From positions 25,243-89,242 of IMG/VR virus record IMGVR_UViG_3300045988_109200: a stretch of 64,000 bases of DNA, one strand, 5' to 3'. The notes under the pieces are model-generated. The model did no database searches and was not told the DNA's origin. It saw only the letters and a list, made by a program, of their open reading frames with translations. Origin of the DNA: a virus. The position numbers and the translations under genes are program-made. Shown here one piece after another: positions 17,109 to 41,315 of this stretch; position 1 is the stretch's first letter, and each line of letters opens with the position of its first letter.

Positions 17109-17137
17109 TTGACTTCTGTAAAGGTATCCTGTATAAT
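17109..17137 (+). promoter_or_regulatory. consensus sigma70 promoter TTGACT-17-TATAAT, overlapping a 21-bp conserved motif copy in minus orientation
   Basis: perfect spacing and hexamers; spacer/-10 is GTATCCTGTATAATATAG. Confidence 0.6.
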
Positions 17138-17180
17138 ATAGCTATGGAACGGAGCTACACTATTATAGAGGAGAAAGACT

Positions 17181-17600
17181 ATGGACAACAATATTGACCC
17201 AAAGGTCGGAGAGGTTTGGTTGGTTGATCTATCCAATGCGACAGGTCATCAGCAGCGCGGTATTCGACCGTTCGTTGTGACGAGCAACAATAAGCGCAAC
17301 TTCTTTAGTCCAACAATTAAAGGGAATCCGTTGTCTTCCAGAATATACAAGCGCTCTCCGGTTCATGTTCTACTCTCAAAGGAAGATTGTGATTTCCTAG
17401 AGGTTGATAGTATCGTTCTATGTGAAGAGACTGATACACTTAACAAAGGACAGTTCATTAAAAAACTTGGTGTCTTGTCGGAGCGTCAGATGAATATGAT
17501 CGCAATGGCAAGATGCAAGGATGAACCGTTTTTGCTTGCAGCATTCCTGAGCGGCGTACAACATACCATGGAATTTCAGAATTTTGCCGCATTTGCTTGA
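17181..17600 (+). CDS. MazF/PemK-family toxin-like endoribonuclease (139 aa)
   Basis: VGEVWLVDLSNATGHQQRGIRPFVVTS N-terminus matches the PemK/MazF signature. Confidence 0.7.
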   Translation: MDNNIDPKVGEVWLVDLSNATGHQQRGIRPFVVTSNNKRNFFSPTIKGNPLSSRIYKRSPVHVLLSKEDCDFLEVDSIVLCEETDTLNKGQFIKKLGVLSERQMNMIAMARCKDEPFLLAAFLSGVQHTMEFQNFAAFA

Positions 17601-17653
17601 TTTTTTATAAGGTTTAATGGTACACTACATATAATAAGAAGGAGTGTGCCACT

Positions 17654-18580
17654 ATGCTTACTGAAGAAAAAATCAAAGCTTTTGCCGAAAAGTATTCTGA
17701 TAGAAGCGGTGAGTTTGTTGCATCGACGATGCGTCACGTCATGGATTACGAGGCCGAGCGTGGGTATGAGTTGTTTGACTTCACAAAAGATGATTTCGTA
17801 AAGATGTTTGCCAAATATAATTGGGTGAATTCGAGTCGTTCGTTTAAAAATGTGAAGTCAATAATCACAGGCTACATCAAAAGTGAAAACGAAACAAGCA
17901 TGTATGATCTGGCTGACTTTTCAGAGAGCGATGTAAGCGCAGATGATATGTACAATGACAGTTATTTTGCGTCGGTTGACGAATTTGTTGACTTCTTAAA
18001 TAAGTACGAAGAGCCATATCAGATTCGTATGAACGTAATTGCTGTTTTGTACTGGATTGGTCTTACTTCCGATGAGATTTCTAATCTAACAATTAACGAT
18101 GTGGATTTTGAATCTAATACCGTTCTTGATAAGACTGATGTTGACGCAAGGTTAATGGATATTATCAAGCAATGTTACGAGATGAAACAGTATGAAGCCC
18201 CCAATAAGAGCGGTTATAGAACATTTTATGTCATGAATGGCGATTATATCCTACGCAAAACGAAGGATAAACCCGGTGTAAACAGTGATCCAAAGACGTC
18301 TATAATTTCAATTCATGTCTATTTTTCGAGGTTGAACGATATCCTCGAAAAAAGGCATCATTCAAAAACCTTAGATCAAAGATATTTAGCCAGAAATTGT
18401 GAGTATATCAAGGTTTATAACTACTGTAAAACTCATCCAAAATTTAATCTTGCAGAACTTAGTTTCGGAAATGGTAAAGGTCCTCTTGCGGACATTATCG
18501 GAAGAAAGTGCAGTAAAGTTGCCTATCTTAGTTTCCGGCAAGGATATAAAGGTTGGGTTGAATATTTCCATGAAAATTAA
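17654..18580 (+). CDS. hypothetical protein, possibly degenerate tyrosine-recombinase-like fold (308 aa)
   Basis: ORF track; LYWIGLTSDEISNLTINDVDF segment resembles recombinase box I, but no clear HxxR/Y. Confidence 0.45.
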   Translation: MLTEEKIKAFAEKYSDRSGEFVASTMRHVMDYEAERGYELFDFTKDDFVKMFAKYNWVNSSRSFKNVKSIITGYIKSENETSMYDLADFSESDVSADDMYNDSYFASVDEFVDFLNKYEEPYQIRMNVIAVLYWIGLTSDEISNLTINDVDFESNTVLDKTDVDARLMDIIKQCYEMKQYEAPNKSGYRTFYVMNGDYILRKTKDKPGVNSDPKTSIISIHVYFSRLNDILEKRHHSKTLDQRYLARNCEYIKVYNYCKTHPKFNLAELSFGNGKGPLADIIGRKCSKVAYLSFRQGYKGWVEYFHEN

Positions 18581-18584
18581 AAAC

Positions 18585-18608
18585 AGGGGGCTTCGGCCCC
18601 TTCATTTT
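18585..18608 (+). terminator. rho-independent terminator (GGGGGC-UUCG-GCCCCU stem-loop plus T tract)
   Basis: perfect GC stem with UUCG tetraloop followed by tcatttt. Confidence 0.6.
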
Positions 18609-18615
18609 AACATGC

Positions 18616-18636
18616 TAACTATATAACACAGGATAC
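18616..18636 (+). promoter_or_regulatory. conserved 21-bp motif copy TAACTATATAACACAGGATAC
   Basis: one of at least 7 near-identical copies; about 15 nt upstream of the Pnkp-like gene start. Confidence 0.5.
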
Positions 18637-18651: not shown

Positions 18652-20871
18652 ATGCAGATGAGAACACTTTTACTGTTCCGTGGAGCACCCGGTTGCGGGA
18701 AGTCCACCTATATTAAAGAGCATAATCTTGAGCAGTACGTATTGAGTGCTGATACACTTCGCCTTATGTGCCAGAGCGCACAGGAAACACCTGATGGGCA
18801 GATGGAGATTTCTCAGCAGAATGATGATGTTGTATGGGAGATGCTTTTCAAACTGCTTGAGGTGCGGATGAGCCATGGCGAGTTTACTGTGATTGATGCA
18901 ACGAATTCCAAGACGGTCGAAATGAATTATTATAAGAATCTTGCAAAACAGTATCGTTATCGGATGTATGTTATTGATATGACGGACCTTCCGATCGAGG
19001 AATGCAAACGAAGAAACGCTCAGAGAGAATGGCTAAAGCGAGTTCCTGAAGCGGCTATTGATAAGATGTACGCTCGGTTTGCTACTCAAAAAGTTCCTTC
19101 TGGCGTGACAGTTCTTCCTTCTACTACGGATGTGATGTCCGATTTGAACTACTGCCCGAATGACTTTAACCAGTGGAAAAAGATACATATCATCGGTGAT
19201 ATTCATGGCTGCTATACCTGCTTGAGTGAATACCTTGGTGAGATGAAGGACGACGAGCTTTATATCTTCGTTGGTGATTATCTCGATCGTGGCATCGAAA
19301 ACGTTGAGGTATTCAAGTTCTTGTGTGATGTTGTAAATAACAACCGCAAGAATGTGATCCTTTTGGAAGGGAACCACGAGCATTGGCTGAACAAGTGGGG
19401 GCATGATAAACCGGTTCAAAGTGAAGAGTTTGCAAACTACACTCGTCCGCAGCTCTTTAAAGCCGGTATTGACAAGAACACTGCTCGTAAGATCTATTCC
19501 AGAGTCGGCCAGTGTGTCTACTTTGAGTATGATGGTAAGCGGTATTTCGTAAGTCACGGTGGTCTGAGCTATCTTCCTTATTTTCTTCCGTTCGTGTCTG
19601 CGGATCAGATGATTAAAGGCGTAGGCCGCTATCCTGATATACTGACCGTGGCTGAGTCTTGGGAAAAGTCGATGCCGGATAGCTATATTCAGATCTTCGG
19701 CCATCGAAATGTACAGGATGTTCCTATTGATATGGGTCATCGGTGCTACAATCTTGAAGGCAAAATCGAGTTTGGTGGATATCTTCGTTGTGTGGAGCTT
19801 GAACACGGTCAGCCTATCAAATGCGTAGAAACCAAGAATGATGTATTCCGAAAAGAGGAGCCAAAGACTGAAACTGCCGTTGAAATGAAAACTGAGTTCG
19901 ATAACGCAGAACTTGTTAGTAAGATGCGTCAAAGCAAATATGTGTTTGAGAAGCGATTCGGAGATATTTCTTCTTTCAACTTCTCTCGTGAAGCATTTTA
20001 TAAGAAGCACTGGGATGAGGTTTCTACCAAAGCAAGAGGGTTGTTCATTAACACAAAGACGAATAAGATTGTAGCTCGAAGCTATGATAAGTTCTTTGCG
20101 GTTGATGAGCGGAATGAAACGAGAATTGGAAACCTACAGAACACTTTGAAGTTCCCGGTGACTGCATATCTAAAAGAGAACGGATTTCTTGGTATCATTT
20201 CGTATGATGCAGAACAGGATGGTCTGTTCATTGCAAGTAAATCCACTCCTGATGGGCCTTTTGCAGATATGTTCCGAAAGATTCTCATGGATACGACTTC
20301 TGATGAAGATCGTAAGAATCTGAAAGAAGTTGCAAAAGAGAATGGCTCCATCATCTTCGAGGTGATTGATCCTGTGAATGATGCACATATCATCGAATAT
20401 AAGAAACCGCACATTGTTTTGCTGGATATTATTGCAAATGATATGAATTTCAGTGTAATGGATTATGATGATTTGAAGCGTGTAGCCGAGAAGTGTCATC
20501 TGCAGATTAAGGAGAAGGTTAAAACCTTTGAGAACTGGAGTGAATTCTATCCTTGGTACGAAGAAGTCATGAACGAGAACTATCTGCATCATGGTTTTGA
20601 ACACGTTGAAGGCTTTGTTTTGCGAGACAGCAATAATTTCATGTTTAAGCTGAAGCTTCCGTATTATAAGCACTGGAAGTTCTTGCGTGGTGTCATGCAG
20701 AGCGTTCAAAAACGTGGCTATTATGAAAATACCGCAAAGTTGTTTACTGCCGAGGATAACCTGTTCTATGGTTGGATGCGTGAACAACGAGAGAAAGATC
20801 AAGAGTCTTTCTGCAAGAAGGGTATTATTCAGCTGCGGAATGAGTTCTACGCAAGTCAGCAGAAGAGCTAA
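18652..20871 (+). CDS. Pnkp-like trifunctional RNA end-healing/sealing enzyme (739 aa)
   Basis: N-terminal GAPGCGKST Walker A; central GDIHG/GDYLDRG/GNHE calcineurin-type phosphoesterase motifs; C-terminal region with a KxxG lysine motif, proposed ligase-like (assumption). Confidence 0.65.
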   Translation: MQMRTLLLFRGAPGCGKSTYIKEHNLEQYVLSADTLRLMCQSAQETPDGQMEISQQNDDVVWEMLFKLLEVRMSHGEFTVIDATNSKTVEMNYYKNLAKQYRYRMYVIDMTDLPIEECKRRNAQREWLKRVPEAAIDKMYARFATQKVPSGVTVLPSTTDVMSDLNYCPNDFNQWKKIHIIGDIHGCYTCLSEYLGEMKDDELYIFVGDYLDRGIENVEVFKFLCDVVNNNRKNVILLEGNHEHWLNKWGHDKPVQSEEFANYTRPQLFKAGIDKNTARKIYSRVGQCVYFEYDGKRYFVSHGGLSYLPYFLPFVSADQMIKGVGRYPDILTVAESWEKSMPDSYIQIFGHRNVQDVPIDMGHRCYNLEGKIEFGGYLRCVELEHGQPIKCVETKNDVFRKEEPKTETAVEMKTEFDNAELVSKMRQSKYVFEKRFGDISSFNFSREAFYKKHWDEVSTKARGLFINTKTNKIVARSYDKFFAVDERNETRIGNLQNTLKFPVTAYLKENGFLGIISYDAEQDGLFIASKSTPDGPFADMFRKILMDTTSDEDRKNLKEVAKENGSIIFEVIDPVNDAHIIEYKKPHIVLLDIIANDMNFSVMDYDDLKRVAEKCHLQIKEKVKTFENWSEFYPWYEEVMNENYLHHGFEHVEGFVLRDSNNFMFKLKLPYYKHWKFLRGVMQSVQKRGYYENTAKLFTAEDNLFYGWMREQREKDQESFCKKGIIQLRNEFYASQQKS

Positions 20872-20900
20872 ATTAAAAAATAGACATTTTATCGTGATTT

Positions 20901-20919
20901 TCGTTAAAATAATTAACGA
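20901..20919. repeat. perfect palindrome TCGTTAA-N5-TTAACGA flanked by direct ATCGTGAT repeats
   Basis: seen directly; TTCGTTAAA recurs at 21091 immediately before the HNH start. Confidence 0.5.
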
Positions 20920-20990
20920 AGTATCGTGATATTTCTTCCTCCGAAAATGCCCTGCGCGGGGCTGACAGCCGGGAAAGACCGGCAATATAT

Positions 20991-21075
20991 GCCAAGGTGC
21001 TGCAAATGGGAGACAGGGCGAGCCCAAACCTCGCTGTGGAAACACATGCGGTTTCGAATACCGTCCTTGGCACCA
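20991..21075 (+). tRNA. tRNA-Leu(CAA)-like, type II, CCA encoded, C33 unusual
   Basis: acceptor GCCAAGG/CCTTGGC; T arm GCGGT-TTCGAAT-ACCGT; anticodon stem GCGAG/CTCGC with loop CCCAAAC; 13-nt variable hairpin. Confidence 0.5.
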
Positions 21076-21100
21076 AAATTTAAAAACAATTTCGTTAAAT

Positions 21101-22024
21101 ATGGGAGGTAAGGTTACGAAAAAGATTGATAAGTTTACAAAAGAAGAAATTGAACAAGCTTTTAAAGAAAGCAACAACTGGGCAATGGTTGCAGAGAAAC
21201 TCGGTTATAGTAAGTTTGGAGGAAGTTCTAGGGATGTAATTCAATCTTATGCGAATGAAAATAATATTGATACTTCTCATTTTACAGGACAGGGCTGGAG
21301 CAAGGGGAAGGTTGATCTGACTCGATTTCGTAAAGGCGTTCCATTCAGTAATCTTCGTGAGTCTCTTTTGAATATACGGCAACATCAATGTGAGAGATGT
21401 AAAAATACCGAATGGTTCGGGAAGGAGATCCCGTTAGAAGTTCATCATATTGATGGAAATCGATTAAACAACGAACTTAATAACCTTCAACTCTTGTGTC
21501 CCAATTGCCACGCACAAACAGAGAACTGGAAAGGTAAAAATGTTAATCATAAGAAGGAAATAACCGACGAACAGCTTATAGAAGCTTTAAAAAATTCATT
21601 GTCAATTAGCGAAGCACTTAGAAAAGTTGGCGTAAATTACATGGCGAAAAGTTGGTTTGAAAAAGCAAGGCAACTTATGCTTGAGAACAATATTGATTTT
21701 CCTAAAAGAGAAGTAGTACAAAAAGAAAAGAAAGAACGTAAAAAACGTACAATAAAATATTGCTCCAAATGTGGGAAGGAACTTTACAAAAGAACAAAAG
21801 GAAATTTGTGTAGGGAGTGCCTTTCTAATCTCCCATACAGAAGATATCACGAGTTACCAGAAAAAGAACAGCTTGAGAAAGAAATCTATAAAATGTCCTT
21901 CTCAAAAATTGGTGATAAGTATGGGGTAACTGGAAATTCTATCCGTAAATGGTGCAAACATTATGGACTTCCTTATAGAAGAGCTGATATAGATAAAATA
22001 TTAACTTCTTGTAGCAATACATAA
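21101..22024 (+). CDS. HNH endonuclease (307 aa)
   Basis: EVHHIDGNRLNN...LLCPNCH HNH motif; C-terminal repeats with CxxC pairs; sits inside the tRNA array. Confidence 0.7.
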   Translation: MGGKVTKKIDKFTKEEIEQAFKESNNWAMVAEKLGYSKFGGSSRDVIQSYANENNIDTSHFTGQGWSKGKVDLTRFRKGVPFSNLRESLLNIRQHQCERCKNTEWFGKEIPLEVHHIDGNRLNNELNNLQLLCPNCHAQTENWKGKNVNHKKEITDEQLIEALKNSLSISEALRKVGVNYMAKSWFEKARQLMLENNIDFPKREVVQKEKKERKKRTIKYCSKCGKELYKRTKGNLCRECLSNLPYRRYHELPEKEQLEKEIYKMSFSKIGDKYGVTGNSIRKWCKHYGLPYRRADIDKILTSCSNT

Positions 22025-22062
22025 TTTTAATAGATTGAGATGCTAAATCCTCAATCTTATAT

Positions 22063-22145
22063 GCTACCATGGCGAAATAGGCAGTACGCTTCGGTCTTAA
22101 AAACCGATGTCGAAAGACGTGCGGGTTCGACCCCCGCTGGTAGCA
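22063..22145 (+). tRNA. tRNA-Leu(UAA), type II
   Basis: acceptor GCTACCA/TGGTAGC; anticodon arm TCGGT-CTTAAAA-ACCGA; long variable arm; T arm GCGGG-TTCGACC-CCCGC. Confidence 0.6.
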
Positions 22146-22152
22146 CTAATAT

Positions 22153-22228
22153 CCGGGTGTAGCTCAGTTGGTATCGCACCTGTTTTGGGAACAGGGGACC
22201 GCAAGTTCAAATCTTGTCGCTCAGGCCA
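22153..22228 (+). tRNA. tRNA-Pro(UGG)-like with weak D stem and an acceptor mismatch
   Basis: anticodon arm CCTGT-TTTGGGA-ACAGG; T arm GCAAG-TTCAAAT-CTTGT; CCA encoded; acceptor 6/7 pairs including wobbles. Confidence 0.4.
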
Positions 22229-22255
22229 GTCCGAAAGGGTATGTAGAATTTTCAT

Positions 22256-22312
22256 TCACATTATTCCCAGCTCTCTGGAAACGGAGCAGTGTGACGTAGT
22301 AAGCTGGGTATA
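22256..22312 (+). repeat. tRNA-array spacer element copy A (structured hairpin CCCAGCT...AGCTGGG)
   Basis: about 55 nt conserved with copies at 22525 and 22748. Confidence 0.5.
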
Positions 22313-22315
22313 TGA

Positions 22316-22386
22316 TGCGCCATCGCCAAGCGGTAAGGCAGAGGACTTTGACTCCTCCATCACAGGTTCGACCCCTGTTGGCGCAA
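22316..22386 (+). tRNA. tRNA-Gln(UUG) with U1:A72
   Basis: acceptor TGCGCCA/TGGCGCA; anticodon arm GAGGA-CTTTGAC-TCCTC; T arm ACAGG-TTCGACC-CCTGT. Confidence 0.6.
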
Positions 22387-22391
22387 TTTAT

Positions 22392-22473
22392 GCGGATATG
22401 GTGGAGTGGCAGACACGCCAGATTTAGGATCTGGTGCTTCGGCGTGTGGGTTCGATGCCCACTATCCGCACCA
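22392..22473 (+). tRNA. tRNA-Leu(UAG), type II, CCA encoded
   Basis: acceptor GCGGATA/TATCCGC; anticodon arm CCAGA-TTTAGGA-TCTGG; variable hairpin; T arm GTGGG-TTCGATG-CCCAC. Confidence 0.65.
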
Positions 22474-22524
22474 CGGTCATAGAATGGTTGCGTACCGTTT
22501 TGTTGATCTCCTTTGACTGCCACT

Positions 22525-22580
22525 ATTATTCCCGGCTCGCCAGTGATGGTGCAGTAGTGCTTTGTAAGCTGGGTGATTGT
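22525..22580 (+). repeat. tRNA-array spacer element copy B
   Basis: TATTCCCGGCTCGCC...GTGCAGTAGTGCTTTGTAAGCTGGG. Confidence 0.5.
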
Positions 22581-22656
22581 GCAGCTATGGTGTTAGTGGT
22601 TAGCACATCTGCCTTCCAAGCAGAGAGGGCGGGTTCGAGTCCCGTTGGTTGCTCCA
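22581..22656 (+). tRNA. tRNA-Gly(UCC), CCA encoded
   Basis: acceptor GCAGCTA/TGGTTGC (two GU pairs); anticodon arm TCTGC-CTTCCAA-GCAGA; T arm GCGGG-TTCGAGT-CCCGT. Confidence 0.6.
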
Positions 22657-22747
22657 ATCTCGTATGGGTAGGATTTTTAGCGGTCAAATCCGGCTGCGCC
22701 TGTGCGAGATACCACCCCGAAATGGGCTAACGAAATTTTTCATGTGC

Positions 22748-22803
22748 GTTATTCTCGGCTCGCCCGAAAGAGTGCAGCGTGCCTTTGTAAGCCGAGTATC
22801 CCA
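22748..22803 (+). repeat. tRNA-array spacer element copy C (compensatory stem CTCGGCT/AGCCGAG)
   Basis: TTATTCTCGGCTCGCC...GTGCAGCGTGCCTTTGTAAGCCGAG. Confidence 0.5.
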
Positions 22804-22837
22804 GCCTAGTGATGCCAGTTGCTAGGTTGGTTCTTAT

Positions 22838-22913
22838 GCGACTGTAGTTCAATTGGTAGAGCGTCAGATTTCCAATCTGAATGTTGCGAGATCGTCCCCC
22901 GTCAGTCGCTCCA
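22838..22913 (+). tRNA. tRNA-Gly(UCC)-like second copy, noncanonical T loop, CCA encoded
   Basis: acceptor GCGACTG/CAGTCGC; D arm GTTC-AATTGGTA-GAGC; anticodon arm TCAGA-TTTCCAA-TCTGA. Confidence 0.5.
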
Positions 22914-23044
22914 CACGCAGCCCCTGACGCTGCACCGGTTGCTCAGAGCCGAAAGGAACCTATATGTTACGACATGGTTGCCAAGAGTGATCATATTGGA
23001 ACGCGACGTAGCTTTGATAGTAGGAATTAAATTCTGAGGTATAC

Positions 23045-23113
23045 GGCTGGATAGCTTAATGGTAAAAGCGCTCGGAAACACCGAGAGATGAGGTTCGATC
23101 CCTCCACTGGCAT
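23045..23113 (+). ncRNA. tRNA-like element (pseudo-tRNA?)
   Basis: canonical D arm TAGCTTAATGGTAAAAGC and T arm GGTTCGATCC, but a 5-bp stem with 5-nt loop replaces the anticodon arm and no complementary acceptor 3' strand. Confidence 0.3.
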
Positions 23114-23140
23114 CGCGCCGACGAAAGTTGGCGTTTATAT

Positions 23141-23216
23141 GGAATAGTAGCTCAGCTGGTTAGAGCCGACAACTTATAATTGTCAGACACGAGTTCAAAT
23201 CTCGACTATTCCACCA
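23141..23216 (+). tRNA. tRNA-Ile(UAU), CCA encoded
   Basis: acceptor GGAATAG/CTATTCC; D arm GCTC-AGCTGGTTA-GAGC; anticodon arm GACAA-CTTATAA-TTGTC. Confidence 0.6.
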
Positions 23217-23242
23217 GCCCGATAGGGCATACATAAAATCTG

Positions 23243-24116
23243 CTAGAACTTTTGTTTTAAATTATGTAAGGATGGATTTTCTGCCAAGCAAATTAGTGTC
23301 TGGTCTTGCAACGTAGAAATCGTTGCGCTCAATTCAGTTTGAACTAGAGCGCCTTTACCGCCACCTTCACATCCAGAGCGGATTTTTAGAGTGTAGGCTG
23401 CAGGTTCTGCGAATCGAGCCGAAGTCTCTCGATGGTCTGACTCCAATACTCGTCCAATTCCTTCTCTTCCAGACCTTCTTGTTCCTTCACTTTCTGCACC
23501 ACCTGTGACAGAGTTCCTGGATTCCACCATTCGATCATATCCAGCAACGCTTGCTTCAGGAGTTCGGGCAAAGGTTTTCCACGCCGGGATGCTCTCACAA
23601 GAATCCCCTGACATGCTCGTGCGCTCAAATAGAATTTCTGAGGCACGTTGTCCTCCAAAATCCATGACAAGCGCGATTCTCTGGCGACGCTGGGCGACTC
23701 CCCAGTATTTAGCGTCGAACAATCTCCATGCAATAGACCATCCATTACCGGAAATCGCTCCAGATTTTGCCCACTTCCCGTTCTTCCCTGAAGGTCGAGG
23801 AATTGAAACGTCTGGCTCGACAATGCGTGCAAATCTTTCCAACACACATCTGAAGTCTTCACCTTTGCTTGAGCTGAAAGCTCCTCTGACATTTTCCCAG
23901 ATTGCGAATTTTGGATATTCTCCATTAGTGGCCTCCCTCATTTCTGTAATCACACGAATCATTTCAAGGAACAATCCAGAGCGTTCACCAGCCAAACCTT
24001 CACGTTTACCGGCCTGACTCAAATCTTGGCATGGACTGCCTCCTGTGATACAGGAAACCGGTTCAATCTGCCACCCATGAAGTTGTGTAATATCTCCGTA
24101 ATGCTTCAGTTTTCAT
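23243..24116 (-). pseudogene. C5 cytosine DNA methyltransferase C-terminal half (motifs IV PCQ, VI ENV, VIII QRRQR, part of TRD)
   Basis: translation contains GGSPCQDLSQAG, ENVRG, QRRQR; SD AAAAGGAGGA plus ATG at 24116 lies in the +1 frame relative to the MTase frame at an A4 run (24110-24113); no motif I-III upstream. Confidence 0.6.
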
Positions 24117-24127
24117 TCCTCCTTTTC

Positions 24128-24148
24128 GTATCCTGTATTATATAGCTA
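24128..24148 (-). promoter_or_regulatory. conserved 21-bp motif copy (minus orientation), about 10 nt upstream of the SD of the minus-strand MTase fragment
   Basis: GTATCCTGTATTATATAGCTA on the + strand. Confidence 0.5.
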
Positions 24149-24229
24149 AAACTCAGAAAATGAGCGAAAAAATAATAGACGTATCAACGTCATGTTATTT
24201 CGTCGCCTATAAAACAAAAGATTTCGCCG

Positions 24230-24829
24230 GTGGTATTTGAGAGTCACAGTCAGGACGCTCGATACACTCAGCAGGGTGATACAAGTCCGACTTGTACTGC
24301 TCAGTGGGGAACGGGCGGTAATAATATGCCGCTGGTCGTTGAAAAGAAAGCCTTTGCAATGCAACGCATTGGTGAGTACAAGGAAAGTGAACACGCCAGC
24401 ACGATGAAATCTCGTGATTATAAGGACGCTACTGACCTGATTGCAGAGAAGGAAACGAAGAATCTACGATGGATTGTTCGCCGCTTGACTCCTTTGGAGG
24501 ATGAACGGTTACAGGGTTTCCCTGACGGATGGACTGATATCGGTGACTGGATTGATGAGAACGAAAAGAAGCATAAAACTTCTGACGCAGTTCGTTATAA
24601 GGCACTCGGCAATTCAATCGCATTACCGCAATGGTATTGGATTTTTCAGAAGATGAAACCGTATATCGGTGAGAATCCTACTCTTGGTAGCCTCTTCGAT
24701 GGGATCGGCGGCTTTCCGTTAGTATTTCAAAGCACATATGGTGAAGGTACTGCCATTTGGGGGTCAGAAATTGATAGCTTTTGCGTTGCAGTAACTAAGA
24801 AGCATTTTCCAGAAAAGCAAAGAGGATAA
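24230..24829 (+). CDS. C5 cytosine DNA methyltransferase fragment with permuted order (TRD tail, motifs IX and X, then motifs I and II), 199 aa
   Basis: RRLTPLEDERLQGFPDGWT (IX), YKALGNSIALP (X), then LGSLFDGIGGF (I) and SEIDSFCVAV..HFP (II); GTG start, no clean ATG. Confidence 0.55.
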   Translation: MVFESHSQDARYTQQGDTSPTCTAQWGTGGNNMPLVVEKKAFAMQRIGEYKESEHASTMKSRDYKDATDLIAEKETKNLRWIVRRLTPLEDERLQGFPDGWTDIGDWIDENEKKHKTSDAVRYKALGNSIALPQWYWIFQKMKPYIGENPTLGSLFDGIGGFPLVFQSTYGEGTAIWGSEIDSFCVAVTKKHFPEKQRG

Positions 24830-24831
24830 AA

Positions 24832-27518: not shown

Positions 27519-27539
27519 TAGCTATATTAAACAGGATAC
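27519..27539 (+). promoter_or_regulatory. conserved 21-bp motif copy TAGCTATATTAAACAGGATAC
   Basis: about 15 nt upstream of the 27555 gene. Confidence 0.45.
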
Positions 27540-27554: not shown

Positions 27555-27848
27555 ATGCAAAATACTCTTGAATATACCGCATATAATGGCATGAAATTTT
27601 ACATTGTTTATATCGATGCACTTGAAAAAGAGCCAGAAGAAGATTCTCCCATGATGTCTATTGTGTTCACTACGCATCCTGAAATTATCGCAGAAGCTAA
27701 AGCTGACGCGGAATGCAATGATGGTGCTGTTCCGGTGGGGTGCAAGGATCTTCTAGTTGACAGTGTAGATAATATCACTCGTCAGTTGGATTATGTTGCT
27801 CATGCTGTTGAAACGGGTGATCCGTGGTATGAGTGCTTGAAAGTTTAA
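27555..27848 (+). CDS. hypothetical protein (97 aa)
   Basis: ORF track. Confidence 0.45.
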   Translation: MQNTLEYTAYNGMKFYIVYIDALEKEPEEDSPMMSIVFTTHPEIIAEAKADAECNDGAVPVGCKDLLVDSVDNITRQLDYVAHAVETGDPWYECLKV

Positions 27849-31275: not shown

Positions 31276-31284
31276 GGAACTACA

Positions 31285-32307
31285 ATGGTAAATATCGCAG
31301 ATCTGAAAAATTACATTCTTGAAGAACAGCAGATTGAACCGATTCTGGAGGAACTTGGTTGTCATCATATCAGTCACAAGACTGGTTATTACCAGTGTGC
31401 AAATCCAGATGGTGACAATAGAACGGCACTCTGTATCTACGAGAATGAAAATCTTACTGCGGTAGATTACACACGAGATATTGCCAATGGAAAGACCAGT
31501 TATGATTTGATTTCTGTCGTCCAGTTCTTTCTGGAACTGTCTTTCCCAAAAGCTATTAAGCAAATCTGCGAATGGGTTGGACTTGACTACTATCACAACT
31601 TCGAGGAAGACCTTCCTAAAAGTATGTTGATTCTAAAAGAACTCATCGCCATGCAAAGTGAAGGTGAAGAACACGAGGATGACCGTCCGATAGTCCCAAT
31701 CTCCGAAGCCATCCTCGGTTATTACAAACCTTATGTGAACCAGATTTTTGCTGACGATGGGATATCTTATGAGACGCAGCAGGAGTTTGAGATTGGCTTT
31801 GATGAACTGACAAATAGAATCACGATTCCAATCAGAGATGAAATTGGTACTCTGGTTGGTGTAAAGGGAAGATATTTTGGCAAGCCGCCTGAAGGTGAAT
31901 TAAAGTATCTATATCTTGAGCCGTGTGCCAGAAACCGTATTCTGTATGGCCTGTATAAGACAGAGCCGTACATTAAGAATGAAGGTCTGGTATATGTTGG
32001 TGAAGCTGAAAAGTCTGTCATGCAGATGTGGAACATGGATGTCTACAACTGTGTGGCGACTGGCGGTAAGAAGGTTTCACAGAATCAAATTGAAATTTTA
32101 ACACGTCTTTGCGTTGATATTTGTTTTGTATTTGATAAAGACGTTCAGCTTAGTGAGCTTATGGTTCTCGCTAATCGATTTGTCGATGGCGTAAGTGTGT
32201 ATGCTGTAGTAGATGATAAAGGGATTCTGGATGAAAAGGAAGCCCCGACTGATAATCCTGAAAAATTTAAGGCATTGATTGAAAACTGTGTTAGGAGAAT
32301 TAAATGA
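31285..32307 (+). CDS. DNA primase (zinc-binding N-terminus plus TOPRIM), 340 aa
   Basis: CHH...C zinc motif; LVYVGEAEKSVMQMW TOPRIM-like; DKD motif. Confidence 0.6.
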   Translation: MVNIADLKNYILEEQQIEPILEELGCHHISHKTGYYQCANPDGDNRTALCIYENENLTAVDYTRDIANGKTSYDLISVVQFFLELSFPKAIKQICEWVGLDYYHNFEEDLPKSMLILKELIAMQSEGEEHEDDRPIVPISEAILGYYKPYVNQIFADDGISYETQQEFEIGFDELTNRITIPIRDEIGTLVGVKGRYFGKPPEGELKYLYLEPCARNRILYGLYKTEPYIKNEGLVYVGEAEKSVMQMWNMDVYNCVATGGKKVSQNQIEILTRLCVDICFVFDKDVQLSELMVLANRFVDGVSVYAVVDDKGILDEKEAPTDNPEKFKALIENCVRRIK

Positions 32308-34046: not shown

Positions 34047-34047
34047 T

Positions 34048-34395
34048 ATGGGAAATTGGAAACGTGCTATCGCCATCGACTTTGATGGCACTCTCTGTGA
34101 AAATAATTACCCTGATATCGGTGAGCCAAATTGGAATGTCATTTATCAAGCAATTCAGGAACAGAAACACGGTGCTGGTCTGATTCTCTGGACTTGCCGT
34201 GAAGGAAAGCTTTTGTATGATGCAATGGAGGCTTGCTTTGATTGGGGCATTCAGTTTGATGCAATCAATGAGAGTCTTCCTGAGTGGAAAGAGCATTTTG
34301 GCACTGCTCCTAGAAAGGTTGTAGCTGATGAATATTGGGATGATAAGGCTAAGGTTGTAAAAAATGGAGAGTTGATTGACAATGCTGATGCCTGA
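34048..34395 (+). CDS. HAD-superfamily hydrolase-like (115 aa)
   Basis: AIDFDGTL motif I. Confidence 0.5.
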   Translation: MGNWKRAIAIDFDGTLCENNYPDIGEPNWNVIYQAIQEQKHGAGLILWTCREGKLLYDAMEACFDWGIQFDAINESLPEWKEHFGTAPRKVVADEYWDDKAKVVKNGELIDNADA

Positions 34396-34567
34396 ACAGT
34401 TTGAAGCAGACGTTAAAGAATTTATCGCAGAATGCCAAAGCCATCCAGTGATAGATTTATCAAAAGATGATCCATGCGAAGGATGTCGCTTTGAGGACTT
34501 TTGCGATAGGTTTTATCCGGGCGATGGTAGCACATGGCATTGGCGAGTTTATGAGAGGGGTGAATGA
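34376..34567 (+). CDS. hypothetical protein (63 aa)
   Basis: ORF track. Confidence 0.35.
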   Translation: MTMLMPEQFEADVKEFIAECQSHPVIDLSKDDPCEGCRFEDFCDRFYPGDGSTWHWRVYERGE

Positions 34568-35329
34568 ATGGTTTACATTACAGGCGATATTCATGGCGAT
34601 TTTAATCGTCTCTTAGAGTTAAATAAATTTTGCATTAAACACAATCTTGGAAAGAATGATTGGATTATCTGTCTTGGTGATGTTGGTCTAAACTATTATG
34701 GTAAGGATAACATCAACGAATGGAGAGTTAAGACCATTGCTGCGGACATCCCTGCGAATTTATTCTGTATTCATGGAAATCACGAACGCCGCCCGTCTCG
34801 TAAGGATGGTTATAGGACAAAGGAAATCAGTGGAGATATTTGTGGTAAGGTGTGGCATGATTCACATTATCCCAATCAGTATTTTGCTATTGATGGCGAA
34901 GTTTACCAGATTCTTGCTGATAGGGAAATTCTGAACTGTCTTGTTTGCGGCGGAGCATATTCTGTAGATAAATATTATCGGTTGGAACGTGGATGGAACT
35001 GGTGGCCGGACGAACAGCCTAATGAGAAGACTAAGAAAAAGATCTGGAATATTACACATGACCCTCAAATCGATGATATTGATGTTATGCTCACGCATAC
35101 CTGTCCATTTCGGTTCATTCCAACTGAATTGTTTATCGGTGGTATTGATCAAAGCACAGTAGACCAGTCAACTGAAATATTCTTTGATAATATATACGAA
35201 TGTTATCCTAACGATTGTAAACCATTCTGGTACTTCGGCCATTTCCATGGCAACAAGTACACCGATGACTATGTGATGCTTTTCGACGATATTATTAAGT
35301 TTGGAGATAAGGTGAATACGAATGAGTGA
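34568..35329 (+). CDS. calcineurin-like metallophosphoesterase (lambda-PPase-like), 253 aa
   Basis: GDIHGDF, LGDVG, HGNHE motifs. Confidence 0.6.
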   Translation: MVYITGDIHGDFNRLLELNKFCIKHNLGKNDWIICLGDVGLNYYGKDNINEWRVKTIAADIPANLFCIHGNHERRPSRKDGYRTKEISGDICGKVWHDSHYPNQYFAIDGEVYQILADREILNCLVCGGAYSVDKYYRLERGWNWWPDEQPNEKTKKKIWNITHDPQIDDIDVMLTHTCPFRFIPTELFIGGIDQSTVDQSTEIFFDNIYECYPNDCKPFWYFGHFHGNKYTDDYVMLFDDIIKFGDKVNTNE

Positions 35330-35564
35330 ATATCATGTGAGCTGTGGTATGTTTGGTATTTACGCAGGAACTGTTAAAAAGAATGGAACCGAATGGAAGG
35401 ATAAAACTCGTGTCACGGATGAAGCTATCGAGGCAGTTCGTGATTGGCTTCTTTCTGAAGCTCAGTTCAACAATAGAACTTTTGGTGGATACACATGGAC
35501 AACAAAGGACGGTAAGACTGTAACTTTGAGAGTGTCTATCGAAGATAAGGAGCAGACAGAATGA
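35322..35564 (+). CDS. hypothetical protein (80 aa)
   Basis: ORF track. Confidence 0.4.
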   Translation: MSEYHVSCGMFGIYAGTVKKNGTEWKDKTRVTDEAIEAVRDWLLSEAQFNNRTFGGYTWTTKDGKTVTLRVSIEDKEQTE

Positions 35565-35595
35565 ATTTAAATAGTATGAAAGGTGGTGTTGCCTG

Positions 35596-38500
35596 ATGAG
35601 TAGCAGTTTACATACGCACTCATACTTTTAGCTTGCTCGATGGGTTCTCTTCTCCTGAAGAAAATCTAAAAAGAGCATCGGAACTTGGCTTGAAAGCTAT
35701 TGCCATTACGGAACATGGTGAGGTGACAAGCTGGCCGTATTACTCAGAACTAAAAGACAAGTATCCTGACGTAAAGCTTCTTTATGGTATCGAGGCATAT
35801 GAGTGCGAGGATAGGGAAGTAAAGGACAAGAACAGTAAATACTGGCATCTGATCATCATCGCAAAGAATGAGGCTGGTCGTCAGACGGTTAATCGCTTAT
35901 CTACACTCGGTCATCTTCATGGCTTTTATAGCCGTCCTCGTATCACAAAAGAGGATATCGCTAAGGAAGATACGAATAATTTGATTATCCTGTCTGCTTG
36001 TTTGGCGAGTAGACTGTCCAAAACGGATGATTATGACACTTGTGTCAAGCTAGTTCAAGAGTATAAGAGTTTATTCCCTCACTATTATCTTGAGGTTCAG
36101 GCTCATGCAAATAGTGAACAAGCAAAATACAATCAGAAAATCATGCGGTTGGCAAACGACACTCATACAAAAGTAGTCGTCACAAACGATGTTCATGCTG
36201 CCACAAAAGAAGCTCTGTATTATCAAGACTACTTTCTGAGAATTGCTCATGATACAGAAACTGCCGCAGAAATCTACGAAGGATGCTACTTTATGTCTCG
36301 CAGGGAGCAACATGAAGTCCTTGACGGTCAGATTGGATATGATGCGGCAGAATGGTGTATCAACAATACCGATGAGATTGCTGACCTATGTGATTATGTG
36401 GATATGCCTTGGCACGAACCTGAACTTCCCAAAATCGAGATTCCTCCACAGTATTCCAACTCAGCAGCTTACTTAAAAGACCTTGTGAAAGAGGGATGGA
36501 AGAAACGCGGCATTGACAAGTTTGATGTAGAAAAGCAGAAGATCTATCGTAAGCGTGTTGATGACGAGCTGTTTGTCATTGAGAAGAAAGACTTCTGTGA
36601 TTATTTTTTGATTCTGGTTGATTACATCAACTGGTGTAAGAAAAATGATGTCATTGTTGGCCCTGGTCGTGGTTCTGCCGCTGGTTCACTTGTATGTTAC
36701 CTGATTGGCATTACGCAACTTGATTCCATCAAATACGAGCTTGATTTCGGACGATTCCTTACCATTGAACGAAAAGACCTTCCCGACGTTGATGTAGATG
36801 TCAGTGATCGTGCCAAGGTTGTCGAGTATCTGACACGGAAGTACGGTGAAGATCGAGTAGTTCAGGTTATGAATATCGTGTACACCACTCCGGTCACTTC
36901 GATTCAGGATGTTGGCAAGGTGCTCGGTTTCCCGTATGCTGAGATTAGAAAAATCAGCGAGAAATTCGTTCAAAAGACATGGAAGGATTGTCTTGAAGCA
37001 AATCCAGAAGTGGCTGAGAATCCGAGATACAAAGAACTGCTTGATATTGCAGAGCACATCAATGGTCGCCCACGAGGGTATGGTATCCATGCTGGCGGTG
37101 TTATTGTCTGCCGACATCCTTATTATGAGTATATCGGTATCCGACACGGTGCCGATGGAGAGCACGTTATCTCTGTTGATAAGGTGATGGACGAGAAAAT
37201 TGGACTTGTTAAGTTTGATATTCTTGGCGTTGCATCGCTTGTGGCTATTGATGAGGCAAAGCGTGAGGACAATATTCCAGACTGGGAAATTGACATTAAC
37301 AATCCTGAGTTTGAAAATGACAAGGCATCCTATGATTTGATTTGTTCTGGCCGGACAGACAATCTATTCCAGATTGAGTCGTCTGGTATGAAGGATCTGG
37401 TTGCACAGCTTCAGCCGAGGTCGATTGAGGAGCTGTCAGCATTGATTGCTCTTTATCGTCCTGACGCAATGCCGTCTATTCCTACATACGTTGATTGCAA
37501 GTATCATCCAGAACACATTCATTATTTCCATCCTGATATGGAACCAATTTTCCGCAGCACCTATGGCGTGAACATCTATCAGGAACAGAGTATGAAGCTC
37601 ACAAAGGTCTTTGGTGGCCGAAGCGATGCTGGTGCTGATAGAATGCGTAAGTGCTTAGCAAAGAAGAAACCTGAGAAGGTCAAGGAAGAGGTAGAACTTC
37701 TTCACGATGAAATTCTTGCAAATGGATACGATAAAGCAACCGCCGAGTATATTTGTAACGAGTTGTCAACGAAGGGCGGCTACGGCTTCAACGCTAGTCA
37801 TTCTCAAGCATACGCCGTCATCTGTCTTCAGACCGCATACTTGAAAGCCCATCATCCGCTTGCGTTCTTTAAGGCTATGCTGAACCTGAATAAAGCAAAG
37901 GTCGGTAAGGTCAATAAGATTATGGTGGACGCACGCAGCTTTGATATTCAGATTCTTCCTCCGAGTATCAATCGTTCCGGCATGGATTTTACTGTGTCAA
38001 ATGGTAAAATCCTATTTGGCTTGTCTGCTATCGGTGGTATTGGCAATACACTTGCTGAGACTATCATTGCAGAACGAGATAGGAATGGAAAATTTAAGGG
38101 ACTTGATGATTTCACGAGTCGTGTTCGTGCAACGAAAGCGCAGATCATTGCGTTGGTCAAATCCGGTGCGATTCCTACAAAAAACAAACGAATATTCTTG
38201 GAAAAGTACATTGCCAGCGGTTTGGAACAATCTGAGTTTAAACCAGTCAGTACACTTCCTACCAAGGCAGTTTTGCTGAGTAAGTGGGATATTGATACAG
38301 AGCATTATAAGGTTGGTAAGAAGGTTGATAAAGAAACCGTCCTACGAATCTATAATGAAAAGCGCCGTGTCGTACATGAAACTGAAAAACTCAAGAAAAA
38401 GGAAGCGTACATGGCCGAGCAGTCAGAGAAGTATTTGAAGGACGAGCAATTCTGGGAGTTCCAGACGTTGCAGACGTTTATTATCGATAAGAATCCGTTT

Positions 38501-38812
38501 GAAAAGGCATACGAATACATTAAGGATTTCTCTGAGCTTGAAACTGGTGACTCCTGTGTACTGGTTGGTATTATCGCAAAGATTCAAAAGAAGAAAACAA
38601 AGACTGGTATGCAGTTTGCGTTTGTGAATCTGTATTCTGGCGATGGTATCATTGAGTTGACAGTATGGCCGAGAATCTTGTCAGATTATCAGGATTTGAT
38701 TGTAAAGGGAAGTCAGGTAGCTGTGCTTGGAAAGAAGGAAGATGAATCACACGTTATTGCAAACGACTTCAAACCTTACAAGCAGTGGCTACATGATAGA
38801 GAGATAGCGTAA
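35596..38812 (+). CDS. dnaE: DNA polymerase III alpha subunit (DnaE-type) with apparent +1 frameshift near codon 11
   Basis: PHP N-terminus (LHTHSYF/SLLDGFSS) is split between two frames at TTTT 35626-35629; downstream 1059-aa frame has PHP and polymerase-core similarity. Confidence 0.8.
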
Positions 38813-38824
38813 GAGGGTTATAAA

Positions 38825-41155
38825 GTGGCAGATAAGAAATTTAATGAAAATATGATTCGTTGCTACATCAGGATAAAACGAGTCTTTTATCCGAAAGATG
38901 GGAGGGATGTGGAGCCCGGCGGCTTCGCCACCTTCTCTGCCGAGGTGGTAAAAGTCAAGCAGGGGAATCCTGTTATGAGTCGATACAGTGACCTCCGGCT
39001 AAAAGGCAACGTTCCTAGCCTCGATATGAATAAGACTTATTCGTTCTGTGGTGAGTATGTTCATCATGAAAAGTTTGGTGATCAGTACAAAATCATCTAC
39101 ATGAATGAGTTTCAAGAGATCACTGACCCGGAAGAACAAAAAAGCTTTCTCCGTTTTATTTTGACCGATCATCAGTTTGAGATGCTTTATGAAGCATTCG
39201 ATAATCCGTATGAAATTATCAAGAATGGTGACATCAAGGCTCTTTGTACTATTAGCGGTATTACGGAAGGTCGAGCACAAAAGATCATTGACTCTTTTGA
39301 ACGCAACATTGATAACAGTGAAGCGTACACGAAATTGATTGAATACGGTTTGACTCCCAGTGCTATTGAAAAGCTTGTTCATCAGTATCACGGCGCGGAC
39401 ACTCTGGTAAGAAAGATTGAGGAAAATCCTTACGTCCTGATCGATGATGTGTATGGCATCGGCTGGAAGAAAGCTGACACTCTTGCTTTGAATATGGGCT
39501 TAAAGCACAATTCGCAATTCAGAATCGAATCTTACGTCATGCATTTCCTTGCCGCCCGTGCCGAAGAAGGTAACTCTATTATCCCGGCAAACCAGACAAT
39601 CAATAGCTGCATCAATGAACTTGACTTGGACGAGGGTGACCAAGAAGTCATCAAAAGGGCACTTTTCCATCTGCACGATGTCCGTGAAACGCTTTGGTGG
39701 AGTGATGACCGTCAGGAATTTGCTTTAACTAGAGTGTGGAATCTTGAAAATGAAATCGCAAAGGAAATCAAGCGACTGGCGGATGCACCTGTTGAACCGA
39801 TTGGTCGAAACATGGATGCAGCAATCAATGAGGCTGAGGATGACCTTGGTATCGAGTACACTGAAGAGCAGAGAGATGCTATTAAAAAGGTATGCTCTAA
39901 CAATATTGCTATCGTCACAGGTCTTGGTGGATGCGGTAAAAGTACCGTTGTCGCTGGTGTTCTAAAGGTTCTTCGTGATAAGTCTTTTGCTCAGACTGCA
40001 CTCTCTGGTCGTGCCGCAGCTCGTATGCAAGAAATTACTGGTCAGGACGGTAAGACCATTCATCGTCTTCTTGGTTATGATATTGAGAATGGTGGGTTTG
40101 CTCATGATAAGAACAATCCTCTTGAAGAAGATATTATCATTTTGGATGAGACTTCTATGGTTGGAGCTCAATTGTTCTATGACTTGATTCAGGCAATCGA
40201 AACCGGAAAGCGATTCATCATGATTGGTGATGACGGTCAGCTTGAGAGTATCGGTATGTGCAACATCTTTAAGGATATGCTTGCATCTAAGGTTGTTCCT
40301 GTAGCTCGCTTGACTAAAATTCATCGTCAGGCAGCCAAGTCTGCAATTATTACCGAGAGCATTAAGGTTCGTAACGCTACGCAATTGGTGCCTTATGGCT
40401 GGGCTGGTAATGAGATTCGTGGCGAACTTCGTGATTTGGAGCTTGATATCTATAAGGATGCAAGTGAATCGTTCAACCATATTATCAATCAATACCGTAC
40501 CTTATATAATAAGGTAGGAAATGATAGTGCGAAGATTCAGATTGTACTTCCACAGAAGCTACGTGGTAGTATCTGTACTTATGAAGTCAATAATGCTATT
40601 CAGGAAATTGTGAATCCGAGTCGTGGTCAGGCAGAAGCAAAGGTCACAATCTATGGTGATGGCAAGGATAGAGTATATACTCTGCGTGAGGGCGATCAGG
40701 TCATCATCAACAAGAACAACTATGAGCTTCACACATACAATCTCAAGACAAAGAAAAAAGAAGAGAAGTGTCCGGTGTTCAACGGAAACCGTGGCATTAT
40801 CCGAAAGATTGAGAGTAGTTTTATCCTGGTTGATTTTGACCAGTGGGGAACGATTTTCATTCCTCATTACTTTGGTGGGAATAACATCTGGGCAACGCTT
40901 GAACTTGCTTATGCTTTAAGTTGTCATAAACTGCAGGGCAGTGAGGCTCCGTATGTGATTGTCGGAATGGATAACTCTGCGTACCTGATGCTGACGAGAG
41001 AATGGCTCTATACGGCCATCACTCGTGCCAAGAAGTATTGTGTGATTTGTGCCGAAACTCATGCTCTTGATCGGGCTGTAAAGACTTCGAGAATTCCATA
41101 TAAGCGGACGTTCTTGAAGGAATTTTTACGGAAAGAATTTGCAGAAAAGCATTGA
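38825..41155 (+). CDS. RecD-like ATP-dependent DNA helicase (776 aa)
   Basis: GTG start; Walker A GLGGCGKST; DEtSM Walker B; C-terminal UvrD_C-like region. Confidence 0.75.
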   Translation: MADKKFNENMIRCYIRIKRVFYPKDGRDVEPGGFATFSAEVVKVKQGNPVMSRYSDLRLKGNVPSLDMNKTYSFCGEYVHHEKFGDQYKIIYMNEFQEITDPEEQKSFLRFILTDHQFEMLYEAFDNPYEIIKNGDIKALCTISGITEGRAQKIIDSFERNIDNSEAYTKLIEYGLTPSAIEKLVHQYHGADTLVRKIEENPYVLIDDVYGIGWKKADTLALNMGLKHNSQFRIESYVMHFLAARAEEGNSIIPANQTINSCINELDLDEGDQEVIKRALFHLHDVRETLWWSDDRQEFALTRVWNLENEIAKEIKRLADAPVEPIGRNMDAAINEAEDDLGIEYTEEQRDAIKKVCSNNIAIVTGLGGCGKSTVVAGVLKVLRDKSFAQTALSGRAAARMQEITGQDGKTIHRLLGYDIENGGFAHDKNNPLEEDIIILDETSMVGAQLFYDLIQAIETGKRFIMIGDDGQLESIGMCNIFKDMLASKVVPVARLTKIHRQAAKSAIITESIKVRNATQLVPYGWAGNEIRGELRDLELDIYKDASESFNHIINQYRTLYNKVGNDSAKIQIVLPQKLRGSICTYEVNNAIQEIVNPSRGQAEAKVTIYGDGKDRVYTLREGDQVIINKNNYELHTYNLKTKKKEEKCPVFNGNRGIIRKIESSFILVDFDQWGTIFIPHYFGGNNIWATLELAYALSCHKLQGSEAPYVIVGMDNSAYLMLTREWLYTAITRAKKYCVICAETHALDRAVKTSRIPYKRTFLKEFLRKEFAEKH

Positions 41156-41180
41156 CAATTATGTAAGTATCCTGTATAAT
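41152..41180 (+). promoter_or_regulatory. perfect sigma70 promoter TTGACA-17-TATAAT overlapping a minus-orientation copy of the 21-bp motif
   Basis: -35 overlaps the helicase stop codon. Confidence 0.6.
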
Positions 41181-41187
41181 ATAGTTA
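41167..41187 (-). promoter_or_regulatory. conserved 21-bp motif copy (minus orientation)
   Basis: GTATCCTGTATAATATAGTTA; forms a 21-bp inverted repeat with the copy at 41226. Confidence 0.5.
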
Positions 41188-41225
41188 TAAAAAGTCTCCA
41201 TCCCGGAGGCTTAAAATTCTCTCTT

Positions 41226-41246
41226 TAACTATATAATACAGGATAC
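41226..41246 (+). promoter_or_regulatory. conserved 21-bp motif copy TAACTATATAATACAGGATAC
   Basis: seen directly. Confidence 0.5.
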
Positions 41247-41257
41247 GGGAAAGAAAT

Positions 41258-41289
41258 GGCTTGCTCGTAACGACAAGCCTTTCTTTATT
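41258..41289 (+). terminator. intrinsic terminator-like hairpin GGCTTG-N10-CAAGCC plus TTTCTTTATT
   Basis: seen directly. Confidence 0.5.
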
Positions 41290-41294
41290 AGCTA

Positions 41295-41315
41295 TAACTA
41301 TATAACACAGGATAC
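41295..41315 (+). promoter_or_regulatory. conserved 21-bp motif copy TAACTATATAACACAGGATAC
   Basis: about 13 nt upstream of the ligase gene start. Confidence 0.5.

Follow-up and report, generated by a model that had tools for sequence, protein, structure and literature searches.

What purpose is served by a 21-bp motif that recurs, nearly unchanged and in both orientations, between the genes of an uncultivated phage? The stretch that raises this question comprises 64,000 nucleotides (hereafter the window) of IMG/VR record IMGVR_UViG_3300045988_109200 (positions 25,243 to 89,242), and Pfam and PHROG scans mark it as the early and replication region of an SPbeta-like human-gut phage lineage with genomes of ~125–140 kb. 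A first-pass annotation had listed at least seven intergenic copies of the motif and proposed that they form either an element-specific promoter class or a set of operators for a small regulator encoded in the early region. The operator half of this proposal is supported, whereas a promoter class is at best weakly so, and the small early regulator gives way to a 308-amino-acid integrase-fold protein encoded between two of the copies. Based on sequence and on analogy with Bacillus phages, we consider it fairly likely (probability roughly 0.65) that the phage's master repressor of lysogeny, encoded at 17654–18580, uses the motif as its operator box, which would make the motif the counterpart of the boxes known as SPBRE in phage SPbeta and Phi3TRE in phage phi3T.

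A long asymmetric motif in seven copies

Scanning both strands of the window with the consensus TAACTATATAAYACAGGATAC and allowing up to 3 mismatches returns seven copies, with consensus TA[AG]CTATAT[AT]A[YA]ACAGGATAC. They agree with the first-pass annotation in every coordinate and strand and differ from its consensus by 0–3 mismatches (7/7). Chance would produce 0.01 occurrences per window and none of 100 shuffles gave seven, which bears out the earlier view that conservation exceeds chance; the motif is not a common AT word in the window. A position-weight matrix (PWM) built from the seven copies scores them at 33–38 bits and everything else in the 64 kb at 10 bits or less. Because no other score exceeds 10, there are exactly seven copies without a degenerate halo, and the exhaustive scan that had been recommended, here of the 64 kb, ends with these sites and nothing weaker. 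Related genomes carry up to 9–10 copies, all of them intergenic, and the motif search retrieves >115 IMG/VR loci, mostly on contigs of 125–140 kb.

When the seven window copies are aligned with their flanks, conservation is confined sharply to the 21-bp block, with neither a conserved flank nor a −35 element beside it. There is no dyad symmetry across the block, so the motif is a long asymmetric box. Its internal conservation was measured on 98 unique contexts, found independently of the search pattern. Positions 1–2, 4–6, 11 and 13–21 are conserved at 87–100% (TA.CTA, A11, ACAGGAT.C), GGA at positions 16–18 is invariant, and positions 7–10 and 12, which lie in the central TATAAY that would make a −10 hexamer, are variable. 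T12 falls in the least conserved region (64–66% T, with C in 31–35% of copies), and in some copies the central hexamer is replaced by CGTGAC, AGTAAT or CACAAC. Since about one copy in three has C at position 12, the motif is not a sigma-A −10 element in that register, and the overall conservation is that of a long asymmetric recognition pattern, unlike a −10/−35 pattern. Phylogenetic footprinting within sites has little power because the relatives are too similar in these intergenic regions. An A20G variant was considered as a clue to specificity and dropped, as it is not concerted within genomes.

A candidate integrase-fold repressor and its SPbeta counterparts

The candidate box-binding protein (308 amino acids) is encoded at 17654–18580 (plus strand), in an operon that opens with a PemK/MazF-like toxin gene (17181–17600, plus strand; Pfam PemK_toxin, E = 2e-19) and is bracketed by box copies 1, in its promoter, and 2, after its terminator. 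Direct matches of the protein are weak: its open reading frame (ORF) alone gives a sub-threshold Pfam match to MrpR_N_CB, a pairwise BLAST comparison with MrpR, the SPbeta repressor, is not significant, and a sequence search of the PDB yields weak integrase matches only. Profile and fold comparisons were therefore needed. A profile of 29 family members, the distant ones taken from a 1.8-billion-protein library, matches SPbeta MrpR/YopR with a probability of 96% (E = 4e-9, 259 columns), compared with 0.4% and 2.3% for two canonical tyrosine recombinases, and 22 of the 29 members match Pfam MrpR_N_CB. An AlphaFold model built on a shallow alignment reached a predicted local distance difference test (pLDDT) of only 64; the model used here, with a divergent clade of relatives added, reached 85. 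The top seven Foldseek matches of this model in the PDB are SroF–DNA, SroF–Sar, YopR and MrpR structures (E = 4e-8 to 1e-5); Cre, Tn1549 Int, lambda Int and other integrases follow at 1.8e-3 or worse.

The protein is a homologue of MrpR/SroF with the CB and CAT domains of the integrase fold, and its recombinase catalytic set is degenerate. Catalytic Arg I of the G-x-R box is replaced by Thr/Ser in 15 of 15 aligned members (GLT/GLS/GFT/GLA, aligned to GVR of XerA) and the divergent clade has Ala in place of the box II Arg. Like Y304 of MrpR, the C-terminal Tyr298 has been kept. Judged by profile and modelled fold, the protein belongs, as a distant relative, to the integrase-fold master repressors, and we assign it to the MrpR/YopR/SroF group. 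The repressor family is present on hundreds of metagenomic contigs.

In SPbeta, the SPBRE boxes are served by MrpR (also YopR or SroF-SPbeta; Lazarevic 1999; Kohm et al. 2023, PMC10516654), which binds them at ~10 early promoters and represses these promoters (PMC10516654). SroF of phi3T binds the 26-bp Phi3TRE as a monomer that encircles DNA and reads 24 of the 26 bp, and SPbeta-like phages carry differing specific repressor alleles (bioRxiv 10.1101/2025.11.27.690993); the phi3T system also includes the antirepressor Sar, and structures are available (PDB 9rd5, which is SroF bound to DNA, and 9rgl). We derived SPBRE here from NC_001884. Its copies at yorE, yorM, yorZ, yosX and yonP occupy the spacer of TAGACA-17-TATAAT promoters, and those at yopM, yopV and yonX end 0–5 nt before the Shine–Dalgarno sequence (SD). 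A long, asymmetric, near-invariant box that is repeated ~10 times is the expected signature of a repressor of the SroF/MrpR type.

The likeness to SPbeta includes genome size (~134 kb), a syntenic replication module, a repressor with a tyrosine-recombinase fold and an incomplete catalytic set that is encoded last in an operon with a box in its promoter, and ~10 near-identical intergenic boxes at early operons that fill the spacer of a sigma-A promoter or abut an SD. Individual positions also match: the repressor operon promoter (yopM–R versus 17109), the head of the replication operon (PyorE versus 27519), the site after the polymerase block (PyorM versus 41167–41315) and the site before the gene for the RNA polymerase YonO or its homologue (PyonP versus a box in the related locus L012). 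In contrast, the box sequences are unrelated (ACAAATACAAAWAATATGTATA in SPbeta, TARCTATATWAYACAGGATAC here) and the repressor proteins are ~12–14% identical. Unlike in SPbeta, boxes inside promoters are reversed relative to those next to an SD, inverted pairs 37–40 bp apart recur, most SD-adjacent boxes follow a hairpin without a visible sigma-A promoter, the host is probably a gut anaerobe instead of Bacillus, and the PemK/MazF-like toxin stands in place of YopM–Q. Compared with the phi3T SroF system, the conserved block measures 21 bp instead of 26, no Sar-like antirepressor is recognised in the 64 kb of genome covered, and no LexA/SOS box (GAAC-N4-GTTC) occurs near the repressor region.

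That the protein binds the box and thereby represses is what we infer from the motif and where its copies lie, from the protein's homology and predicted fold, from the parallels in position with SPbeta and from the concerted change of box and repressor allele in one clade. A repressor monomer would clamp one asymmetric box and read ~2 helical turns. At the reversed boxes in the promoters at 17109 and 41152, bound repressor would exclude RNA polymerase and, at 17109, autoregulate its own operon. At the boxes that lie between a hairpin with a T-run and an SD (18616, 24128, 27519 and 41295), it would block read-through or local initiation and so hold back tRNA-repair, methylase, replication and ligase genes. 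Likewise, the gene for a YonO-like RNA polymerase would be repressed in relatives, and the lytic programme would stay silent in the lysogen.

All integrase-fold master repressors with multi-copy boxes characterised to date are from SPbeta-like phages of Bacillus. The present assignment would place a distant but recognisable version in an abundant uncultivated lineage of ~135-kb human-gut phages, and the box sequence of this lineage is now available together with a second, heteroimmune-like box/repressor allele. It would provide a concrete protein–DNA pair whose early regulon can be read from sequence alone, and a natural specificity swap for the study of a monomeric clamp-type repressor that reads ~20 bp. 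It also exposes an unexplained feature, namely units that start with a box and have no recognisable promoter.

The second allele comes from a syntenic clade of relatives (L206–L208), in which the repressor is 36–37% identical to that of the window, the PemK-like protein 94% and other neighbours 63–81%. Both boxes retained in this clade, one reversed inside a TTGACA-17-TATACT operon promoter and one after the repressor terminator, read AGTATAGTAWACAGAATTT. C4G, T9G, G17A and A20T/C changed jointly at both sites, at positions that are 79–100% conserved in the main clade. As far as sequences can tell, this is the pattern of a heteroimmune repressor–operator swap.

The same comparison bears on a role for the motif in RNA, for example as a cleavage or binding site (UACA/ACA) of a PemK/MazF-like endoribonuclease in 5′ leaders. 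A PemK-like toxin is encoded in the repressor operon, and five of the seven window copies would enter leaders just before an SD. Such a role is nevertheless very improbable: PemK is 94–99% identical across clades even though the motif changes at four near-invariant positions, and reversed copies sit in promoter spacers that would not be sense-transcribed. Known MazF sites span 3–7 nt, a length that conservation over 21 bp far exceeds. As the box changes while PemK stays constant, the motif is decoupled from the PemK-like nuclease, and PemK, 94% conserved where the box differs, was rejected as its partner.

Several further observations concern this neighbourhood. The PemK-like toxin has no obvious antitoxin. 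A hypervariable 108-amino-acid ORF upstream of it (16763–17089) has its own near-consensus promoter, TTGACG-16-TATAAT at 16693, and no match to Pfam, PHROG, Sar or PDB chains; it could be an antitoxin or an antirepressor-like partner. In the divergent clade, L206 (11038, 15143 and 16689) and L207 (5615) carry a different repeated element, (T)AACG-N5-(A/T)CGTTAAAT, instead of the box. It is partly palindromic and stops 4–12 nt short of the SD at the RNA ligase gene, the methyltransferase gene and one other gene, and the SD-adjacent element seems to be an exchangeable module.

Two box orientations and the competing readings

Orientation was counted over 276 instances from the window and fetched loci of relatives. 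Of these, 89 (two of seven in the window) are antisense and overlap a sigma-A promoter of the form TTGAC[AT]-17-TATAAT. In the window they are copy 1 (17124–17144, minus strand), inside the TTGACT-17-TATAAT promoter predicted for the repressor operon at 17109–17137 (plus strand), and copy 5 (41167–41187, minus strand), inside the perfect TTGACA-17-TATAAT promoter predicted at 41152–41180 (plus strand) at the end of the RecD2-like gene. Both promoters had been proposed in the first-pass annotation and hold: they are two of the three best sigma-70-type matches in 14–52 kb, and the reversed motif supplies their spacer and −10. Copy 1 is a putative autoregulatory operator of the PemK-like/repressor operon; its architecture recurs in relatives, with the −35 conserved and the spacer varying, and in the divergent clade. 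Reversed copies occupy an identical register in three unrelated promoters, and at these sites the −35 hexamer is conserved whereas the spacer between it and the box varies. At position 10, 65 of 89 reversed copies have T, which gives TATAAT on the opposite strand, and 113 of 117 SD-class copies have A, which gives TATAAY toward the gene. This base thus tracks the direction of the gene served, and a reversed box therefore has bases in common with a real −10. Behind reversed copies, no gene was found. A minus-strand candidate behind a reversed copy in L012 was rejected because of its TTG start and the lack of an SD and of any family match.

Five of the seven window copies point at a gene and end 2–10 nt before its SD, behind a hairpin and T-run. 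Copy 2 (18616–18636, plus strand) follows the terminator hairpin of the repressor gene (18585–18601) and lies ~8 nt before the SD of a Pnkp/RNA-ligase gene. Copy 3 (24128–24148, minus strand) follows a hairpin with a T-run (24178–24191) and precedes a minus-strand C5-methyltransferase fragment, whose SD begins 3–4 nt after the motif and not ~10 nt as first described; this hairpin–box–gene cassette is inverted as a whole relative to relatives such as L124. Copy 4 (27519–27539, plus strand) stands at the head of a long replication operon (27555–41155). Copy 6 (41226–41246, plus strand) forms an inverted pair with copy 5, 38 bp apart, and is followed by a strong terminator hairpin (41258–41279) with a T-run. 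Copy 7 (41295–41315, plus strand) precedes the SD of the DNA ligase gene by 2 nt, so that the cluster at 41167–41315 consists of one inverted pair and a direct repeat 48 bp further on. The distance of 13–20 nt from motif to start codon given earlier stands in essence, with the range corrected to 13–21 nt. The associated gene calls were right (Pnkp/RNA-ligase fusion, 18652–20871; ATP-dependent DNA ligase, 41329–42660), although the Pnkp start is probably the second ATG (18658), because relatives read ATG-TAG at the first.

These SD-adjacent units could be taken to mean that the motif is the promoter of phage-specific machinery, either a YonO-like polymerase, a phage sigma factor or a redirected host polymerase. 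Transcription would then start around G16–G17, and reversed copies would occlude early promoters and make antisense RNA. A continuous 21-bp block with sharp edges and without a −35 is what promoters of single-subunit polymerases look like, and GGA at positions 16–18 is invariant. Five of seven copies aim at a gene from just before its SD and behind a hairpin with a T-run, and a sigma-A promoter is undetectable at such copies: no co-oriented copy reaches 10/12 matches, and there is no conserved −35 or TG extension. The 24128 cassette and its gene have been inverted as a unit, which calls for a promoter of their own. Relatives also encode a YonO homologue; in L012, a box copy and a hairpin with a T-run lie directly before the gene for a 930-amino-acid YonO-like polymerase.

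We nonetheless regard such a promoter as unlikely. About a third of copies are antisense in a fixed register within TTGAC[AT]-17-TATAAT, with no gene behind them, so that the 89 of 276 antisense instances conflict with a single-subunit polymerase whose promoters should each face their gene. Read instead as a sigma-A −10 at positions 7–12, the motif fails on its weak T12 and on the lack of a conserved −35. One co-oriented copy in L012 lies at ~+3 to +24 of a canonical extended −10 promoter (TTGAAT-17-TGgTATAAT), so a copy need not be a promoter itself, and a YonO-like gene behind a copy would need the very polymerase it encodes. In SPbeta itself, YonO transcribes from one late promoter (PMC5467207). 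Scanning of the window ORFs brought up no sigma factor, and experiments show the homologous boxes of SPbeta and phi3T to be operators.

A composite is also conceivable, in which SD-adjacent copies combine an operator with a weak host promoter core that lacks a −35 and consists of the central TATAAY with an upstream T-rich tract or an activator. Each unit of hairpin, box and SD would then be a repressible cassette in its own right that travels with its gene, much like the stem-loop cassettes of T4-type phages discussed below. In favour of this, position 10 follows gene direction (A in 113/117; T in 65/89). Moreover, sequence upstream of the box is conserved and the gene cassettes downstream of it vary, so that the box marks their junction, and the methyltransferase cassette is found in both orientations, each time with its box. 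The composite is quite improbable in view of C at T12 in about a third of copies, the outright replacement of the hexamer in some (CGTGAC, AGTAAT, CACAAC) and the lack of a −35 or TG extension.

Similar arrangements of hairpin, element and gene are known from promoter early stem-loop (PeSL) cassettes of T4-type phages and from T7-like terminator–promoter units. The cassettes described here resemble these in that a hairpin with a T-run, a ~20-bp element and an SD with its gene are repeated at cassette borders and can be inverted. Unlike in PeSL cassettes, the element has no sigma-70 −35/−10, a third of its copies are reversed in promoters, and it covaries with the repressor allele.

The operator reading must also be weighed against several observations that do not favour it. 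The link between protein and box rests on homology, position and one covariation event, and that event is single. The 108-amino-acid gene at 16763–17089 also diverges in L206–L208 (22% identity) and is a candidate specificity partner, and repressor identity within the main clade ranges over 71–100% with the box unchanged. Most SD-adjacent copies follow a hairpin and T-run without a sigma-A promoter upstream; if these hairpins are efficient, transcription has to start by some means at or close to the box, for which a pure operator gives no account. The minus-strand cassette at 24128, being inverted, cannot rely on plus-strand read-through. Transcription of SD-adjacent genes may come from leaky hairpins, from unrecognised activity of host polymerase at the box or from a phage-specific start. 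A dual role is doubtful, with the box acting both as repressor operator and as promoter of a non-sigma-A system such as a YonO-like polymerase. The hairpin–box–SD cassettes would then be self-contained middle-gene units, and the phage polymerase would occlude early operon promoters, including that of the repressor/toxin operon, as a built-in switch.

The boxes are also independent of gene orientation and keep a set geometry, which counts in favour of the operator reading. Inverted pairs 37–40 bp apart occur in three unrelated site families (window 41167–41246; L012 7045–7124 and 14142–14222), and their spacing is constant although the intervening sequence differs (two different hairpins and one promoter). 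No convergent pairs were found among the pairs surveyed. The fixed spacing suggests that a preferred arrangement of bound proteins is under selection.

The pair in the window has a further property. A transcript from the predicted 41152 promoter would start at ~41188, cross the hairpin and copy 6, and meet the terminator (41258–41279 followed by TTTCTTTATT) after ~100 nt. It is perhaps a short non-coding RNA, perhaps a regulated leader before the ligase gene; Rfam gives no match for the 41152–41290 region, and the scan as a whole found tRNAs only.

Phage lineage and gene content of the window

A megablast search of 13 kb against GenBank phages found no close relative, and a scan of genome contigs returned as its sole match one contig of a Faecalibacterium-labelled metagenome-assembled genome, a label that is unreliable for naming the host. 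The replication operon (27555–41155, plus strand), putatively controlled by copy 4, encodes a Sak4-like ATPase, a DnaB-like helicase, a primase, a RecJ-like exonuclease, Pol III alpha and a RecD2-like helicase. It is syntenic with SPbeta yorE–yorL, and the gene order from the YorF-like protein to Pol III alpha is that of yorF–yorL. Three tyrosine-recombinase-like genes are also encoded in the window. The 930-amino-acid protein of L012 is homologous (E = 2e-25) to the single-chain RNA polymerase YonO of SPbeta. It was found by reading that locus; an SPbeta YonO query in IMG/VR returned Bacillus-type phages only.

The region behind copy 2 (18652–23216) looks like a tRNA-repair and tRNA-supply module. 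It contains the Pnkp-type kinase/phosphatase/RNA-ligase fusion (739 amino acids) followed by eight tRNA genes (Leu ×3, Pro, Gln, Gly ×2 and Ile), with an HNH endonuclease ORF (21101–22024) between the first and second tRNA. The adjoining C5-methyltransferase region (22000–24830) is inverted compared with L124-type relatives and looks fragmented. A 17-codon ORF starts at the SD after copy 3, a 259-amino-acid ORF with a TTG start occupies 23243–24022 (minus strand), and a 199-amino-acid ORF at 24230–24829 (plus strand) matches methyltransferase families. GC skew dips slightly below zero in this region (−0.02), in the sole 2-kb bin of the window to do so. In L124, a Cas12f/TnpB-like gene (429 amino acids; 12936–14225) is inserted between RNA ligase and methyltransferase.

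Further downstream, the PWM scan gives no box copies in 44833–62392. This part of the window encodes ThyX, two SPFH/flotillin-like proteins, NrdD with a radical-SAM activase, a dUTPase and a FolD-like enzyme, a gene set that, with its anaerobic ribonucleotide reductase, points to an anaerobic host.

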